Notes under the pieces: generated by a model
What the model was told of the DNA's origin: nothing
Databases searched by the model: none
What the model saw: only the letters and a program-made list of their open reading frames with translations
Shown: piece after piece, positions 20,233 through 26,664 of the stretch
Layout of the letters: each line of letters starts with the position of its first letter
Position numbering within the stretch: the first letter of the stretch is position 1
Program-made: the position numbers and the translations under genes
DNA from: Candidatus Dormiibacterota bacterium
GTDB lineage: Bacteria; Chloroflexota; Dormibacteria; Aeolococcales; Aeolococcaceae
Direction: 5' to 3'
DNA: 64,000 nt
NCBI GenBank assembly: GCA_963709585.1
Contig: CAVPXI010000013.1
Location: 148,148-212,147 of the forward strand

Positions 20233-21706
20233 TCAGCGACCTCCGTCAGCAATGGACCGCGCTGCACGGCACTCGCACTCCTCGGGGCAGTCCATGAGCA
20301 GTACGCGCGACGTGGCGCTGAGGAAGTTGTACTGCCAGTGGAAGCCGCTCTGAGGTGCGACGCCAAGAAGTTCCTGTACAACAATCGACGCGCCCACAAC
20401 GCCGGCAAGCCCGTTGACAAAGGGAGCCGCCCCGACGAAGTCACCGCCGGTTCCGCCCAGGCTGGACCGCGTGATGTAGCCGCAGATGAGTGTACTCGCA
20501 CGTCGAGCGTCCTCAAGGTTCTGGCGATGGACGGCCGGAGCAGCCGCGATGTCATCTTCTGAGATGGGCTGGTTGTACGAACTCGGTGATGCGCTCAGGC
20601 CGAAGGCCAGTCTGTTGTGCGACACGGGCAGGATAGGACACCGCGTCTGGGGGAGCCGTGTGCGCACCGAGGAGGCACTGGCCACCCTCTCCGGCCCTCC
20701 AAAGATGGACCTGGGCGGTTGTTCCGCCTGCAGCCATGTCAACAATGGTGTGAGGCCAGAGTTGCTGTATCGCATGTCTTGGTAGGGCCTCGTCGAAACC
20801 AGTGATGACCAGTGGTGGAAGCGGAAGACTCCAATCCCTGATCCTGGGGATGAAGAGATCCAACTCCTCCGTGTGTGGTGTGACGTCGAACCTGTGCAAG
20901 GCTCGCTTGATCAGCTGCGTCTTCTCGGTGCCGAAGTCGCCGGCGCAAACGAGCGCGTACGCGCCCCAGTTTTCAGGCCCAACGACCTCTCGATCGACGG
21001 TCAACAGAACGCCGGCGAGAGGAAGTTCCGATATCGCGGCTGCCCAGCCATTGCCCACTCCTCCACAACCAGCCAGCAAACCGTCAAGGTCCGGAATCGG
21101 TATAGAGAGAGGGAAACCCGTATCGAAGGCGCCAAGCGGGCCCGACTGGCCGGACAGGAGAGACAACTCGCGCTCCCGCTGGACGGGCGGGTGGCCGATT
21201 AAGCGAAGAAAGGTTTCCGCCGCAGCGAGACAGGCCGCACCCATTGCACCAAGAGCGTTGACGGGTTCGGGGCTCCATGGCAATCGAACTGCCTCGGCGA
21301 GGGTCGCGGCGATCCTAGCAACCCAGCCCGTCGAGTTCACGGTGATGTGCTCCGGCCCGACCTGACTGACCGTGCCTACGGTGATGACGACGTCGGCATT
21401 GGTTTCGGCGACGTCGTTGATGGTGCTGGCGTGCACACCGTCGGTGATTGCGACGGCAAGCGCGGCACACTGCTCGGCAAGGCGAGGGTTCCCCGCCGAG
21501 ACGCGGACATTAGGGCAGAACCGGAGCAATTGATTAACGAGGGTGCGCACCAGGACGTGGGCGCTTGGGTCATTTTCGAGCAGGGAATCCAGTCGGACAA
21601 GAACCGTCGATGCGGTGAGGCGAGCGTCAATGTCGTCCTCGGATTCGTGCTGAAGACCAGCTCCGAGCCGTACTGGACGGCTATCAATTCGACTGCTATC
21701 GGCCAC
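20233..21706 (-). CDS. E1-like ThiF-family activating enzyme with N-terminal inactive adenylation-like domain (frameshift near 20580)
   Basis: NALGAMGAACLAAAETF (inactive half), GCGGVG nucleotide loop, VDREVVGPEN, GFD. The other frame continues ICGY (candidate catalytic Cys), APFVNGLAGV and terminal CPEECEC. GTG start 1 nt after the JAB stop. Confidence 0.85.
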
Positions 21707-21707
21707 G

Positions 21708-22256
21708 TCACACGTTCGCGATGCTTGATGCATCGGCGCGCTGTACCTCGACGGGGCCAGCGGGCGACGTACCACCGATGCGGACCCTGACTGCCAGCTC
21801 TGGTTTTGCGAGATGCCTGTAGTCGCCTGCTTCCCAGACGTACCAGCCCCATGCCTGTGGATCGAGTTCGGCACCGCGACGACCGATGACGACCGCGAGC
21901 ACACCGGGCGCCTTGATACTGTGGGTTCGGTCGCGGGGCGAAAGCTTCGCCGGGCTACCCCTACCGTGTGTGTGGCACACACCGAGGAGACTCATCCCGC
22001 GCGGCTCAGCCCATCGCGCCACTGTGGCGAAGACCTCTGGCGCAACACGCCAGTAGAAGGGGTGCTCTTCGACACCCGCGCCGTGGGGGAAGACCACGGC
22101 CTGTACAACCGCTCGCTCCGCCCGAGAGCCGAGCCAGAAAACGCCGGCCTCGCATCCGACCAAGCCGGCATCTCGCACAGCCGCGAGGGTGGCTTCGACG
22201 GCCTCAGCAGGGACGACCCAGGATTCAATGCCTGGATACGGATCGATCTCTGTCAA
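21708..22256 (-). CDS. JAB/MPN+ metallopeptidase
   Basis: Upstream Glu (CEAGVFWLG) and HTHGRGSPAKLSPRD matching the JAMM HxH..S-x2-D motif; TTGA overlap with the Ubl stop. Confidence 0.85.
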   Translation of the reverse strand: MTEIDPYPGIESWVVPAEAVEATLAAVRDAGLVGCEAGVFWLGSRAERAVVQAVVFPHGAGVEEHPFYWRVAPEVFATVARWAEPRGMSLLGVCHTHGRGSPAKLSPRDRTHSIKAPGVLAVVIGRRGAELDPQAWGWYVWEAGDYRHLAKPELAVRVRIGGTSPAGPVEVQRADASSIANV

Positions 22257-22588
22257 TCGACCGTACCACCAGGCGTGATCTCTTCGACCAAGTCGAAGTG
22301 CAGCTCATGCTGTTCGTCACCATGGCGATCAGCCAACTGGTCCAGTGTCTCCTCAAGGTTGGTGATCCTCATCCCGCCGATAACGAGGAAGTACCGATAC
22401 GTGTCTCGCTCCTGCCGGTCGCGGACGCCAAAAAAGGCCATTGCCTCCTCGCGAACCACTCCCACGTGCGTGGGCGGCGGGTAGGCGTGGTGAAAGGGGC
22501 GGGCAGCCGGGAGGTACGACACTTTGGCCTCGATTTCCCGTGGATGCTCGCTCGGCGTGCTGTTGTCGGTCGGGTTGGTAACGGTCAT
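22253..22588 (-). CDS. Ubiquitin-like (beta-grasp) protein ending ...ITPGG-TVD
   Basis: 111 aa, GGAGG RBS; strand-strand-helix-strand pattern (IEAKVSY, PFHHAY, VGVVREEAMAFFG, YFLVIGG, LHFDLVEE); di-glycine plus 3-residue extension; operon with JAB and E1. Fold is inferred. Confidence 0.7.
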   Translation of the reverse strand: MTVTNPTDNSTPSEHPREIEAKVSYLPAARPFHHAYPPPTHVGVVREEAMAFFGVRDRQERDTYRYFLVIGGMRITNLEETLDQLADRHGDEQHELHFDLVEEITPGGTVD

Positions 22589-22622
22589 GGTGGCCTCCTC
22601 CAACGGCTCTTCGTGGTAGTCT

Positions 22623-22661
22623 TGTTACGGGAAATGGTGTACTGCTGGAAATATCGTAACA
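22623..22661. promoter_or_regulatory. Candidate operator in the divergent Ubl/XRE intergenic region
   Basis: Inverted repeat TGTTACG-N25-CGTAACA enclosing two GGAAAT boxes in a lower-GC patch. Confidence 0.35.
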
Positions 22662-22737
22662 GACGGGGCTGCTCGGTTGCAAACCCCTGGGTCCGAGCGC
22701 AAACTGCGTAACTCGAAGCCACCGGAGGAGAGACGCC

Positions 22738-23928
22738 ATGGATGCCCCGTTAGTCGACGCGCGCACTGAGGCCGGGTACTCGCAGGAGGACGTCGCCGCG
22801 GCTCTCGGGGTGAGTCGAGCGATGGTCAGTTATTGGGAATCCGGCAAGCGGGAGCCCAATGACCGTCAACTCGTCGCACTTGCTCGCCTCTACCGACTGC
22901 CCGTTGGCGTGCTGCTTGGGACGGAACCTCTACCTAGTCGGGCGGACGAGGCGCGAATGCTGTTCCGAGGCGCCGAGAACGAGCTCGCAGGCGAAGCGAA
23001 GACCGGAGTGGCCGAGTTTGTCCAGTTTCTGGACAACTACGCCAGGCTGGCCAAGGCGCTGGGTTTTGAAATCCGCGGATTAGCGCAAAGCCCGTTCCTC
23101 ATGAGGATCGGATATGAGACGGCCGAAGATGCGCGCCGGAAGGCAGAGGAAGTCCGAGCGCATTTGCGATTGGCTATGGGACCCATTAGCGACATCGACG
23201 CCGTGGCTGAGCTTCTCGGAATAACAGTCTTTCGAGCTGCACTCGGAGAAGACCTGACGCACGGACTATCGGGGGCGTTCTTCGCGCACCCCGAGGTCGG
23301 ATTCTCGATACTCGTAAATCTGCAGATGACGCCGGGCCGCAGACGTTTTACCGTCGCTCATGAGATAGCACACGCCTTGTTCCATAGTCGTTCCGATAGG
23401 TACGTATTGTCACGGCCCGCAGGTGGCGCCAAGGAGCAGTTCGCGGACGCGTTTGCCGGCGAATTCCTGATGCCGAGTGAGGGTGTTCGCCGGGTCATGG
23501 AAGAACAGGGAGTAGGGCCACGCGTCACCGACCCCGCGGTCGTGATCCACCTACAGCGCTACTTCAATGTGTCCTACCCGACGGCATTGGTCCGCCTGCT
23601 GAAGGCGAAGTTCATCGATCGCGACCATTTTGACCAGTTCAAAGACCTTCGACCCGTCCTTTTCGCTCAAGCACTCGGCTATGAGGTTGGGGACGACGAG
23701 TTCGGTCAGAAGCCGGAGGAATGGCGACTCCGCAGATACCCTCGTCGCTTCTTAGCGCTCATTCGGCAGGGCGTCCGGAGCGGGAAGATTTCGGCCGGCT
23801 CAGCCGCGAGTCTGGCAGGACTGTCGCTGGACGATGTCGAAGAGCTTTGCATGGACCAGCAGCAAAGCGTTGCGTCCCGGGAGATCAAGGAATACCAAGA
23901 CAGCGGTGTCTTTGCCGCCGCCGTTTAG
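22738..23928 (+). CDS. XRE-family HTH fused to ImmA/IrrE Zn-metallopeptidase
   Basis: SQEDVAAALGVSRAMVSYWESGKREP HTH; RRRFTVAHEIAH (HExxH); EQFADAFAGEFLMP; YFNVSY. Confidence 0.92.
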   Translation: MDAPLVDARTEAGYSQEDVAAALGVSRAMVSYWESGKREPNDRQLVALARLYRLPVGVLLGTEPLPSRADEARMLFRGAENELAGEAKTGVAEFVQFLDNYARLAKALGFEIRGLAQSPFLMRIGYETAEDARRKAEEVRAHLRLAMGPISDIDAVAELLGITVFRAALGEDLTHGLSGAFFAHPEVGFSILVNLQMTPGRRRFTVAHEIAHALFHSRSDRYVLSRPAGGAKEQFADAFAGEFLMPSEGVRRVMEEQGVGPRVTDPAVVIHLQRYFNVSYPTALVRLLKAKFIDRDHFDQFKDLRPVLFAQALGYEVGDDEFGQKPEEWRLRRYPRRFLALIRQGVRSGKISAGSAASLAGLSLDDVEELCMDQQQSVASREIKEYQDSGVFAAAV

Positions 23929-24571
23929 GACGATCGTTGATACGAACGTCCTGCGCTATTTCTTGTTCGTCGACCGTACGAGCATTCTGGCAACGGTGCT
24001 TGGTCGACCCATGGGGGTTCCGCGGATAGTCTACGATCCGGATGAAGGCGAGCCCCCCGAGAATGCGATGAGTGAAATACGTCGCAGCATCTTGGTGCAG
24101 CGTGAGCGGGGCGATGAGTTGACACGATCCGATGAGGGACGCGCCGAGGCGCGGCGCAATGCGTCCAGGTTGTCGTCGATCGATGCGCTGCTCGGCAACG
24201 GAGACGTCGTCACTGTAGACATGTCACGGGAGGAGCGAGAGCTGTTTGCGGCGCTGACTGATCACAATCGCGCGGGTGACTTTGGTCTCAAGATCGCGCT
24301 TGGGCATGGCGAGGCAGCATGTGTTGCGATTGCAGTCGAGAGGAGTGTCATCCTCGCCACCAACGATGCGGACGCTTTGACCGCGTACGAGCGGCTTGCA
24401 CCAACGGGCGCTCACGCGCGAATTCGAGGTGCGCTCAGAGACGCGGCAGAAGGCGGCCTAATTTCTCGTGCCACCGCAAATGCTACTCATATTGAAATGT
24501 CACGTCTCGGGCTGTGGGATATCGAGCTTCCGTTCTCCCTCGGAGAGTTGGAGGATGATTCCGGCATATGA
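23906..24571 (+). CDS. PIN-domain-like nuclease
   Basis: IVDTNVL, LGHGEAACVAIA, LATNDADA acidic motifs; overlaps the XRE-ImmA 3' end. Start approximate. Confidence 0.75.
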   Translation: MSLPPPFRTIVDTNVLRYFLFVDRTSILATVLGRPMGVPRIVYDPDEGEPPENAMSEIRRSILVQRERGDELTRSDEGRAEARRNASRLSSIDALLGNGDVVTVDMSREERELFAALTDHNRAGDFGLKIALGHGEAACVAIAVERSVILATNDADALTAYERLAPTGAHARIRGALRDAAEGGLISRATANATHIEMSRLGLWDIELPFSLGELEDDSGI

Positions 24572-24924: not shown

Positions 24925-25827
24925 CTATTGGTCCATCGACGGTAGGATGGCCACGTCAAGTGACGCGCTCCTCGTGGCCGCGCGAGCTCCAAGTCTCGGC
25001 GGTATCCAAATGCCCCGGCGTTGCCAGTTTGCGTTGGGGAGCGCGGTCCGTGCCAGTTCTTCGAACTCGCGGTCGTCGAACGACCGTTGCGGGGGCCATT
25101 CGATTTGGTGTAGCCCGGAGGGCCAGATCCGCACCAACCCCGGGGACATGGTCATGACCTGGGCATCCGCGGGACGCAGGGTGTGGCCCAGGATGTGGAA
25201 CGCCACGGTGCCAATGCGCAGCCCAACCCAGTATCGGTGCTCTTCAGCAGCCGGCTGCAACGAACCGGAACCCTCGACGGAGTAAGCGACGAGGTATGCG
25301 AGGCCGACTGACGGTCCTCGGTGCTTGGCCAGCCACACCGTGAGCTGCTCGGGGAGGACATATGGCCGCAGGTCACGTGCGTTGTAGATAGCGCTGATGT
25401 GCTCACGCGGTATGGGCAGCCCAAGTTTGCGGTTCGCGCCCTGGAGCATGATCGCGGTCTTGGCCGCCCAAAAGCCCAAGGTTCGCAACTCCGCTACGCC
25501 GATCGGCAGCGCGATCGGGCCGAGCATGGGCCGCAATATCGGGATGGTGTCGTCCTCGAGGCGGTGCATCCAGCCCGTGTTGCACTCATGGCACACAATC
25601 GGCAAGCGCAAGCGCAGGCTCTGCTTGGTGTCGATGCGAACGCGCTTCGGGTCGTCGAGAAGCCCTGCCCGGCGTTTCACCACACCGCGTCCGTAGAGCT
25701 CCGCGAGGCGCTTGAGCAGCCAACTGGGAATGACATCCTCACGACTGTTGGCTATGCCTCCGCACCAAGTGCAGCGCGTTCGCGGCCTCGGCTGTCGCGT
25801 TGGCCGCGGCATTGCGCCTTCAGTCAT
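24925..25827 (-). CDS. HNH-like Zn-finger protein
   Basis: CTWC...SREDVIPSWL...VCHECNTGWMHRLE resembles the HNH CxxC..EHVIP..CxxCN pattern. Confidence 0.65.
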   Translation of the reverse strand: MTEGAMPRPTRQPRPRTRCTWCGGIANSREDVIPSWLLKRLAELYGRGVVKRRAGLLDDPKRVRIDTKQSLRLRLPIVCHECNTGWMHRLEDDTIPILRPMLGPIALPIGVAELRTLGFWAAKTAIMLQGANRKLGLPIPREHISAIYNARDLRPYVLPEQLTVWLAKHRGPSVGLAYLVAYSVEGSGSLQPAAEEHRYWVGLRIGTVAFHILGHTLRPADAQVMTMSPGLVRIWPSGLHQIEWPPQRSFDDREFEELARTALPNANWQRRGIWIPPRLGARAATRSASLDVAILPSMDQ

Positions 25828-26038
25828 ATTCGATGTGGCTGACCATGTGCAGATGGCGAAATGCGCTGACCATTCCCCCGCCGGTGGTCAGCAGATTTGT
25901 CCAGCAGGAGGTCGCGCAGCCGCGTGCATGGCGTCCGAGAAAGGCCGAGTCACACTGAACCGTGTCCGTACCGTCTTCGGGTGATTTGGCAAATGGCATA
26001 CTTGCAAACTCATCACTAAGAAGAGGGGTATCTAAGTC

Positions 26039-26200
26039 ATGACGGTTGCTGAAGCCGCAGACGTACTGGGCGTCTCCACCCAGACGATATACAACTACAT
26101 CTATGCCGGAAAGCTTCGGGCGCGGAGGCCGGCCGAACGCTACATCCTGCGCGCGCGCGACGTGGCTGCCATCGCGACGAAGCGTAAGGCTCGACGCTAA
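26039..26200 (+). CDS. Excisionase-like helix-turn-helix DNA-binding protein (53 aa), not in ORF track
   Basis: My translation MTVAEAADVLGVSTQTIYNYIYAGKLRARRPAERYILRARDVAAIATKRKARR; GAGGGG upstream. Confidence 0.8.
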   Translation: MTVAEAADVLGVSTQTIYNYIYAGKLRARRPAERYILRARDVAAIATKRKARR

Positions 26201-26609
26201 CTGGCCTCGAGGCGAGCCCATCACGTTCGCGCCACACCGCCAGGGATCGTTGAAATGGTCGCGGGCAATGCATCCCCATGATCCAAGACCGTGCGACCCA
26301 TCACCGGCGCGATCACAAGAAGGCCGAGGAAGGAAATCGAACCCTCCGAAGCTTCCTCAAAACGATCGGAAGAAGCGCCGTCCGAACTCGAGGGAGCGGC
26401 CAGGAAGCCACGTGACGCCGTAGCTGGCCAGAGATATTGGCCCGGTATTGGTCCAGCGCCACCAAACGCCACTTGGGCGCGGCGTTTGGTGGGCAGGTGA
26501 GAGGACACTCGGCTGAACGATGCTCTTGCCCATCGACAGTCTCCGTGCGCACCCAAGGCGGCAGGCGGCTGGCGGCTTGAGGCTGGGGAGGCCGTGCTAG
26601 TCAACTCCG

Positions 26610-26664
26610 TAGGTCCAGCGTATCCGTCGAGCGGCGCGATGGTCGTATAGGTCAGCCGAGCCAT
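26610..26664 (-). pseudogene. N-terminal stub of a DHFR/RibD-C family gene
   Basis: MARLTYTTIAPLDGYA resembles the family start (MxKL.Y..iaSLDGY); similarity then stops. Confidence 0.45.

Follow-up and report, generated by a model that had tools for sequence, protein, structure and literature searches.

The 64,000-nucleotide (nt) stretch of DNA analyzed here, referred to as the window, derives from the genome of a soil bacterium, Candidatus Dormiibacterota bacterium (GenBank assembly GCA_963709585.1, contig CAVPXI010000013.1, positions 148,148 to 212,147), and carries on its minus strand a head-to-tail trio of genes encoding a ubiquitin-like protein (Ubl), a JAMM/JAB metallopeptidase (JAB) and an E1 activating enzyme (E1). 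The first gene (22253-22588, -) was identified from its translation, a BilA-like pro-protein of 111 amino acids (aa), and its ATG is preceded at 6-13 nt by the Shine-Dalgarno sequence GGAGGAGG. The second (21708-22256, -) encodes the BilC-like peptidase of 182 aa and begins with a TTG that shares 4 nt with the stop codon of the Ubl gene (TTGA), an overlap that leaves no space for the gene of an E2 conjugating enzyme (E2) between them. The third (20233-21706, -) begins with a GTG at 21706, 1 nt past the JAB stop codon, with an ATG at 21731 as an alternative start, and encodes a BilD-type E1 of 490 aa provided that one extra base is ignored; in the assembly, the gene falls into two frames (20552-21706, 384 aa, and 20233-20580, both on the minus strand). 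The three genes are translationally coupled. The overlap, the 1-nt gap, the tail of the Ubl and the E1 motifs are all present as described in an earlier reading of this DNA made from the letters alone (the sequence-only reading), which had also related the set to the Bil operons. The matches of the PADLOC models to the operon were only weak (BilA, 1.5e-4; BilC, 6.8e-4; BilD, 1.6e-20), and there was no NCBIfam model for the Ubl, JAB or E1; nevertheless, together with the finding that the closest solved structure is BilD of Ensifer aridi, they support the assignment as a Bil-related Ubl/JAB/E1 set.

The E1 carries the motifs LLAGCGGVGNGW, ICGY and CPEECEC, and gave a weak ThiF match in Pfam. The model of a homologue that is 49% identical to the N-terminal part of the window E1 (P0005; predicted local distance difference test score, pLDDT, 91) had as its top Foldseek matches the E1 chains in the 8tyz/8tz0 structures of the E1-E2-Ubl complex from Ensifer aridi (E 1.5e-28, template modelling score, TM, 0.69), followed in the PDB by UBA7, UBA1, UBA6 and NAE, and the E1 family profile matched PDB 8tyz_A (BilD) with 1.1e-29 over positions 8-368. 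BilD of the Type II system is thus the best PDB match by both profile and fold. As in BilD, the E1 comprises two adenylation domains in one chain, and the N-terminal half, which had looked inactive to the sequence-only reading, turned out to be the inactive adenylation domain (IAD) of BilD, named BilD_N in Pfam 38. An E2 hidden in the E1 N-terminus was considered on the basis of a weak, below-cut-off match to Prok-E2_C (L005, 2.1e-4), and was rejected because the family is the BilD inactive adenylation domain, the profile covers BilD 8-366 and the model has a Rossmann-like element order; the older Pfam label Prok-E2_C on BilD_N was likewise corrected in the account by Chambers et al (bioRxiv 10.1101/2023.09.26.559546). 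A prediction of the E1-Ubl complex, using the cognate pair of L007 with the Ubl cut at its invariant Gly, scored 0.58 compared with 0.40 for the control, which speaks neither for nor against binding.

The Ubl was predicted by AlphaFold2 with 51 homologues (pLDDT 84) to have the beta-grasp element order, and its top Foldseek matches were SUMO1/2, the Caldiarchaeum ubiquitin, ubiquitin and LC3 (TM by target, 0.7-0.8), which bears out the earlier suggestion that the small protein is a beta-grasp; neither ThiS nor MoaD was among the top Foldseek matches listed. It consists of a disordered N-terminus of about 18 aa, the beta-grasp core, Gly107 and the tail GTVD, the C-terminus being EEITPGGTVD and the end ...LVEEITPGGTVD. 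JAB matched Pfam Prok-JAB with 1.1e-6 (28.9 bits, cut-off 25), and an alignment of 38 JAB homologues indicated that E36, H95 and H97 of the JAMM site are invariant, with S106 and D109 present in at least 90%.

To survey how the three genes are arranged elsewhere, related loci were gathered by a scan of species genomes, which yielded 10 loci (Acidobacteriota/Terriglobia, Gaiellaceae and metagenome-assembled genomes of Actinomycetes), and a scan of metagenomes, which yielded 80 loci (59 non-redundant), and were then searched in six frames with hidden Markov models made from the three proteins. An E1 match was present in 91 sources, 64 of which reach more than 1000 nt upstream of an E1 whose 5' end is present. 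JAB and Ubl lie directly upstream of E1, in the same order, in 63 of these 64 informative loci, with Ubl-JAB gaps of -37 to +5 nt and JAB-E1 gaps of -26 to +7 nt (extrapolated from model coordinates); the remaining locus, L011, has fragments of both JAB and Ubl with many frameshifts. With this order of the three genes shared by 63 of the 64 loci, the arrangement is far beyond chance. As separate observations, L061 and L062 have an E1 truncated at the 5' end and neither Ubl nor JAB. A Pfam search of 351 flanking open reading frames (ORFs), 90 of them at E<=1e-3 and 150 plus 111 at E<=1e-4, returned no UQ_con, Prok-E2 or Metal_CEHH, save for the BilD_N artefact in L005 mentioned above; a weak Metal_CEHH match inside L003 (E 0.18, 3 internal stops) was regarded as noise.

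Relatives that do carry an E2 were found within the bacterial family of the window, where a search returned two genomes besides the window's own. One of them, G056, contains two distinct Bil-like operons. The operon at L098 is of the classic Type II Bil kind, with a Ubl of 111 aa, a CEHH-type E2 of 194 aa (Metal_CEHH 28.2 bits, above cut-off), a JAB of 161 aa and an E1 of 547 aa. The order in L095 is a Ubl ending in VTQG, a protein of 145 aa (designated X), JAB and E1. X, of about 145 aa and situated in the E2 slot (L095:568-1005), had no match in Pfam, PADLOC or NCBIfam, and was found also in L099 (583-1017) and on the plasmid pDAETH-1 of Deinococcus aetherius (L103:3016-3453; annotated as hypothetical, 41% identical, 8e-28). 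The ESM Atlas model of X resembles a ubiquitin-conjugating (UBC) fold, its TM against the clusters of UQ_con and DUF7665 being 0.65-0.74, Metal_CEHH occurs on 10-18% of the members of its neighbour clusters, and the cluster of X itself has 162 members. The D-I-C and YP..APSVKF motifs are invariant in the three X sequences. X is accordingly modelled as a putative E2-like protein of UBC fold. These four-gene operons (pDAETH-1 DAETH_RS16655-16640, L095 and L099) have the closest E1 relatives (profile E 1e-85 to 1e-90), possess JAB and a Ubl ending in ...VTQG and, at the Deinococcus locus, a divergent fusion of a helix-turn-helix (HTH) and an M78 peptidase. They differ from the operon of the window in carrying the X gene between Ubl and JAB, and their E1 keeps the zinc pair CxxC and has about 20 aa past its C-terminal CxC. 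A plasmid search with P0005 returned only a distant Deinococcus match.

The phylogeny of the E1s was determined with FastTree (SH-like support, midpoint root), using 194 and then 196 E1s, which comprised the unique E1s of the loci and representatives of at least 450 aa from an E1 profile search of 1.84 billion representatives that gave 285 proteins at E<=1e-30; split and partial E1s were left out except for the N-terminal part of the window E1 in the 196-E1 version. As a result, all 60 E1s from loci without an E2, that of the window included, fell on one side of a branch with a support of 100. The four-gene operon of Deinococcus belongs to clade B, which is the sister, L095 and L099 belong to clade C, and the CEHH type lies further out. 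Because the 60 E1s form one clade nested among E2-bearing operons, it is most parsimonious to suppose that E2 was lost once, on the stem of the E2-less clade. The sequence-only reading had left open a local deletion; the abutting genes in 63 of the 64 loci, with an E2 in none, and the single clade show that the lack of an E2 is instead a trait of the family.

A change in the E1 itself accompanies the lack of E2. In Ensifer aridi BilD, C340/C343 and C491/C493 are described as binding a zinc that rigidifies the E2-binding loop and the helix 490-504, with C417 as the catalytic residue (bioRxiv 10.1101/2023.09.26.559546). The second crossover Cys was absent in 85/85 E1s of the E2-less clade, whereas CxxC was present in all 109 E1s of the other clades, and the tail past the C-terminal CxC is shorter, with medians of 9 aa (main part of the clade) and 8.5 aa (the four basal members) against 18-20 aa elsewhere, although the ranges overlap. 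All 85 still have a Cys where the catalytic residue is expected, along with the Arg finger. Since the zinc Cys was lost and the tail is short while the Cys and the Arg finger were kept, our reading of the alignment is that the E2-docking apparatus of E1 has decayed alongside the loss of E2, with the residues for adenylation and thioester formation retained. The short tail was rejected as a lone mark of E2 loss owing to the overlapping ranges, and was used only together with the Cys loss. A search for clade-specific residues that might replace the E2 function was also dropped, as it gave only 8 positions (>=90% in the clade, <=20% outside) with no pattern.

The site at which JAB would process the Ubl was examined by comparing the tails of 66 Ubl ORFs, 55 of which are unique. 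The C-terminal motif is L[VI]E[EQR][IV]T.G followed by 0-14 variable residues, and the Gly that corresponds to G107 is the sole invariant Gly of the C-terminus in an alignment of 52 sequences. The position after it is occupied by G in 17 of the 55 unique Ubls, by S in 14, by A in 11, by C in 4 and by some other residue in 8, and in one, L077, the Ubl stops at ...VTQG with no residue after the Gly. For Type II BilA, Chambers et al (bioRxiv 10.1101/2023.09.26.559546) describe a Gly that is conserved throughout, with at most 9 residues past it, and cleavage by the deubiquitinase (DUB) after Gly97. Because G107 alone is invariant, as is the single Gly of Type II BilA, JAB most likely cuts the Ubl as ITPG|GTVD, taking off GTVD. 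The earlier proposal of a cut after GG that removes TVD was not upheld, as the second Gly occurs in only 17/55 unique tails. In a Ubl subclade (L051, L052, L059, L063, L064, L068, L070, L075, L076, L079, L083 and L091), there is a conserved tail of 11 residues past the invariant Gly (G-[GCD]-x-[SL]-N-G/A-[RS]-E/K-L-[PS]...), which overlaps the JAB gene by 26 nt; the conservation of this tail suggests that the pro-peptide may itself be functional there.

Upstream of the Ubl gene, a divergent gene (22738-23928, +) encodes a fusion of 396 aa of an XRE-type HTH and Peptidase_M78 (ImmA/IrrE), with Pfam matches to HTH_3 (2.6e-15) and Peptidase_M78 (9.4e-19) and PADLOC matches to RmrA (7e-29), capP (5.7e-21) and capH (5.4e-7); it is thus CapH-CapP-like and also RmrA-like. 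The intergenic region between them (22589-22737) is presumed from its position to hold the promoter and operator, and simple scans of 22580-22745 found neither inverted repeats nor sigma-70-like promoter sites. A divergent HTH_3 and Peptidase_M78 gene or gene pair upstream of Ubl was present in 23 of the 33 non-redundant metagenome loci with at least 1500 nt upstream, and HTH alone in 1; the same arrangement occurs in L003 and L005-L009. The association is commoner here than that of CapH/CapP with Type II Bil operons, given as 25/162 in the account by Chambers et al (bioRxiv 10.1101/2023.09.26.559546), and a regulator association of 31% is given for Bub in that by Ye et al (2024). In L003 (3552-5778, -) and L047 (1551-3777, -), an M78 protein of 524 aa is paired with a sigma-70 region-2-like protein, with no XRE HTH.

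The genes that flank the trio across the loci include DarT/Macro, HipA, AbiU2 and Apea HEPN, GmrSD, restriction-modification, Fic, TrwC and integrases. The distribution is sporadic, with 3/117 genomes of the family and 0/41 other genomes of the genus positive, and in a sample of the phylum searched at 1e-25, 6/401 genomes were positive and the E2-less type was present in the window's genome alone. Furthermore, the operon stretch of about 6.5 kb (20.2-26.7 kb) has a GC content at third codon positions (GC3) of 0.61-0.77, compared with about 0.8 in the flanks, and is surrounded by ordinary housekeeping genes. The suggestion of the sequence-only reading that the operon might serve defence fits this context of CapH/CapP-like regulators, defence-island neighbours and sporadic distribution, and a role in defence is probable. 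Further along the window, three ORFs of 300, 134 and 147 aa (24925-26664, -), situated between the operon and the housekeeping flank, have no Pfam match and GC3 values of 0.77, 0.61 and 0.61; the 300-aa ORF has no PADLOC or NCBIfam match and contains CxxC...CxxC motifs, and the other two have no NCBIfam match.

Among known systems, the window operon most resembles Type II BilABCD of Ensifer aridi TW10 (8tyz, 8tz0). The two share the order Ubl-(E2)-JAB-E1 with the JAB peptidase, an E1 that combines the inactive BilD_N domain and an active adenylation domain (AAD) with a helical insertion bearing the catalytic Cys (CYS) and an Arg finger in the IAD, a single beta-grasp Ubl with one conserved Gly and a short, non-conserved tail, and the divergent CapH/CapP upstream. 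In contrast to Type II, the clade of the window has no CEHH/E2 gene, its E1 is about 20% identical, the four-Cys zinc site is incomplete without the second crossover Cys, and the tail past CxC is shorter and non-conserved. The table of 162 Type II operons (Chambers et al, Supplementary Table 1) includes no Ubl-DUB-E1 class but does have entries with "E2 not annotated" and Ubl-E2 fusions. Type I BilABCD of Collimonas sp. OK412 is related in that the PADLOC Bil models match all three window proteins; according to the published account, it conjugates its Ubl via the C-terminal Gly against phage, with the phage central tail fibre as the target (bioRxiv 10.1101/2023.09.04.556158), and it differs in that it possesses an E2, BilB, that its Ubl has two domains and no residue past the Gly, and that the target was shown experimentally. 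No published description of an E2-less Bil-type clade was found in the literature outside subscription-only papers.

Taken together, we consider it moderately probable that the window carries a member of an E2-independent, inducible Bil-type conjugation clade, in which the E2 gene was lost once and which operates with three proteins and a regulator. By analogy with CapH/CapP, the divergent HTH and M78 regulator would keep the operon silent until stress or phage provides a cue. The JAMM peptidase would then trim the pro-Ubl past Gly107, as suggested by the conservation and by Type II BilA/BilC. The E1, a eukaryote-like pseudo-dimer of the inactive and the active adenylation domain, may adenylate Gly107 and subsequently form a Ubl thioester on the Cys of its mobile, helical CYS insertion (ICGY), the residues for which are conserved. 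Without an E2, the E1-Ubl thioester would be discharged straight onto lysines of targets, probably phage or host proteins during infection, and JAB could undo the modification.

A rival explanation is that an E2 is still used but is encoded elsewhere in the genome, in a family seen by none of the applied profiles. Such blind spots exist, since none of Pfam, PADLOC and NCBIfam recognizes the X of the sister clades, and the window's own genome is 88.8% complete, with 8000 bases withheld. Nevertheless, seven E2 profiles (BilB, Metal_CEHH, Prok-E2_A, Prok-E2_D, Prok-E2_E, UQ_con and the profile of X) returned 0 matches in this genome, UQ_con having been run without a positive control, and in 5 other carrier genomes there was no Metal_CEHH above cut-off and X gave only E 0.19-0.53. 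The X profile was also run on every ORF that reaches 40 aa in the 64-kb window and in 90 loci, with 0 matches at E<=1. The positive controls responded as L098 with 28.2 bits for CEHH and G056 and G207 with 1e-80 and 1e-77 for X, although both of the latter sequences are within the profile. In addition, reliance on an unlinked partner is not expected of a compact and sporadic operon that moves between phyla, and one of the Cys ligands by which, in BilD, zinc stiffens the E2-binding surface is gone from the E1. An E2 acting in trans is therefore unlikely.

Conjugation to proteins without an E2 or E3 has precedents. The archaeal SAMP/UbaA/HvJAMM1 and the Thermus TtuB/TtuC systems modify proteins with a Ubl and an E1, sometimes with a JAMM peptidase, and E2-independent Ubl conjugation is also described for Urm1/Uba4 (PMC9574740). 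The window operon resembles SAMP/UbaA in keeping Ubl, E1 and JAMM with no E2 found, a likeness in operation and not in homology. The E1s of these precedents are MoeB-like homodimers that also serve in sulfur transfer, and GG forms the C-terminus of their Ubls, whereas the window E1, which descends from an E2-using lineage, is a pseudo-dimer of the canonical type in which the Cys domain is mobile, and it scores 15 bits against NCBIfam UbaA (cut-off 450).

It could also be supposed that no protein is conjugated at all, and that the E1 activates the Ubl for a sulfur-carrier thiocarboxylate in the style of ThiS, MoaD, QbsE or CysO, or for ligation to a small molecule. The three-gene content without an E2 is indeed a known layout of sulfur carriers, described for the ThiS/MoaD-JAB-E1(rhodanese) operons of classes 4a-4e, in which JAB trims the carrier (PMC1779556). 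The window E1 has no rhodanese and is instead of the BilD-type IAD-AAD-CYS architecture, with BilD and eukaryotic E1s as its nearest solved relatives; the Ubl is nearest to SUMO and ubiquitin, as seen in the Foldseek matches listed, and has one invariant Gly in place of GG; no sulfur, cofactor, siderophore or cysteine-synthase gene was in a conserved position among the 351 flanking ORFs; and the clade is nested among E2-bearing conjugation operons. We consequently regard this explanation as improbable.

The split of the window E1 arises from a 1-base excess at 20580-20581 (AA on the plus strand; the gene is on the minus strand), located by homologue alignment and public contigs. Frame A ends with a stop at 20552, and frame B, which bears ICGY and CPEECEC, runs on to 20233. 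Among the 40 E1 homologues found, the full-length ones are about 480-520 aa, and an alignment of both pieces with 11 full-length homologues placed the break between ...GLRPERITE and SYNQPISEDD.... The region was compared with four public runs (Logan contigs, soil metagenomes), in which only two contigs, from runs X1 and X2 of two studies, span 20580; both are one base short there, the X1 contig with 0 other differences and the X2 contig with 6, at a depth of about 3. With the base removed by hand reading, the sequence continues as ...ERITE-SYNQPISEDD... in an E1 of 490 aa, which agrees with the homologues. A check of the frameshift against reads had been proposed; the public contigs restore the frame, and because both spanning contigs lack the base, the frameshift is probably an assembly error or a minor or rare variant and no feature of the population. 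E1 is split into at least two frames in 10/91 sources (L010, L011, L012, L033, L043, L051, L065, L066, L086 and the window). It is very unlikely that the operon is a decaying remnant in which E2 was deleted and the rest is without function, an explanation in keeping with these splits and with the orphan E1s lacking partners among Type II Bil operons (Chambers et al, Supplementary Table 1), since the clade has diverged to about 35% E1 identity after a single loss with the three genes still coupled, has kept all its catalytic residues in E1, JAB and Ubl, and occurs in at least 2 phyla, and the frameshift is absent from both spanning contigs.

Several points weigh against an E2-independent, inducible conjugation clade. 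The gene context is known for one member of clade B and two of clade C, and the clade lists were typed by hand from a tree with SH-like support only and a midpoint root. Given the completeness of the own genome and the escape of X from the profile libraries, an E2 elsewhere is possible. The evidence at 20580 consists of two low-depth contigs, and X1 may be the source sample of the window itself; the split E1s may mean frequent decay. As for the regulator, 9 of the 33 loci have none that is recognizable. Moreover, in the window (22738-24571, +), the C-terminus of the HTH-M78 protein weakly resembles UPF0175, and the next ORF is PIN-like (DUF3368-like) and 30% identical to the L006 neighbour; an ORF of 166 aa follows the HTH-M78 fusion in L006 (weak, sub-threshold DUF3368), L028 and L045 (no family match); the HTH-M78 and PIN-like pair could be a RosmerTA-like toxin-antitoxin module, instead of or besides a regulator. 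Finally, for every member of the clade, the formation of a thioester, its direct transfer, the proteins that would receive the Ubl and the part played in defence are inferences.

Among bacterial pathways, Bil systems come nearest to eukaryotic ubiquitination, and all members studied so far need an E2. The clade identified here represents a natural experiment, in which the same E1 architecture persisted and diversified after one loss of E2, with the E2-binding surface changed to match. It is a tentative but serious possibility that a canonical-type E1 lineage has dispensed with E2 and acts as a one-enzyme ubiquitin ligase, which would discharge its thioester onto phage or host lysines on demand. 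If direct transfer is true, the E2 step would be dispensable for a canonical-type E1, and the clade would offer an inducible tagging system of three proteins, simple to reconstitute, as well as a type of defence system that is as yet unlisted. If the one-enzyme ligase is true, the E1 would have adapted its structure to this short-circuit by giving up the zinc-stiffened dock for E2, and the clade would be the minimal complete form of a eukaryote-like ubiquitination machine.

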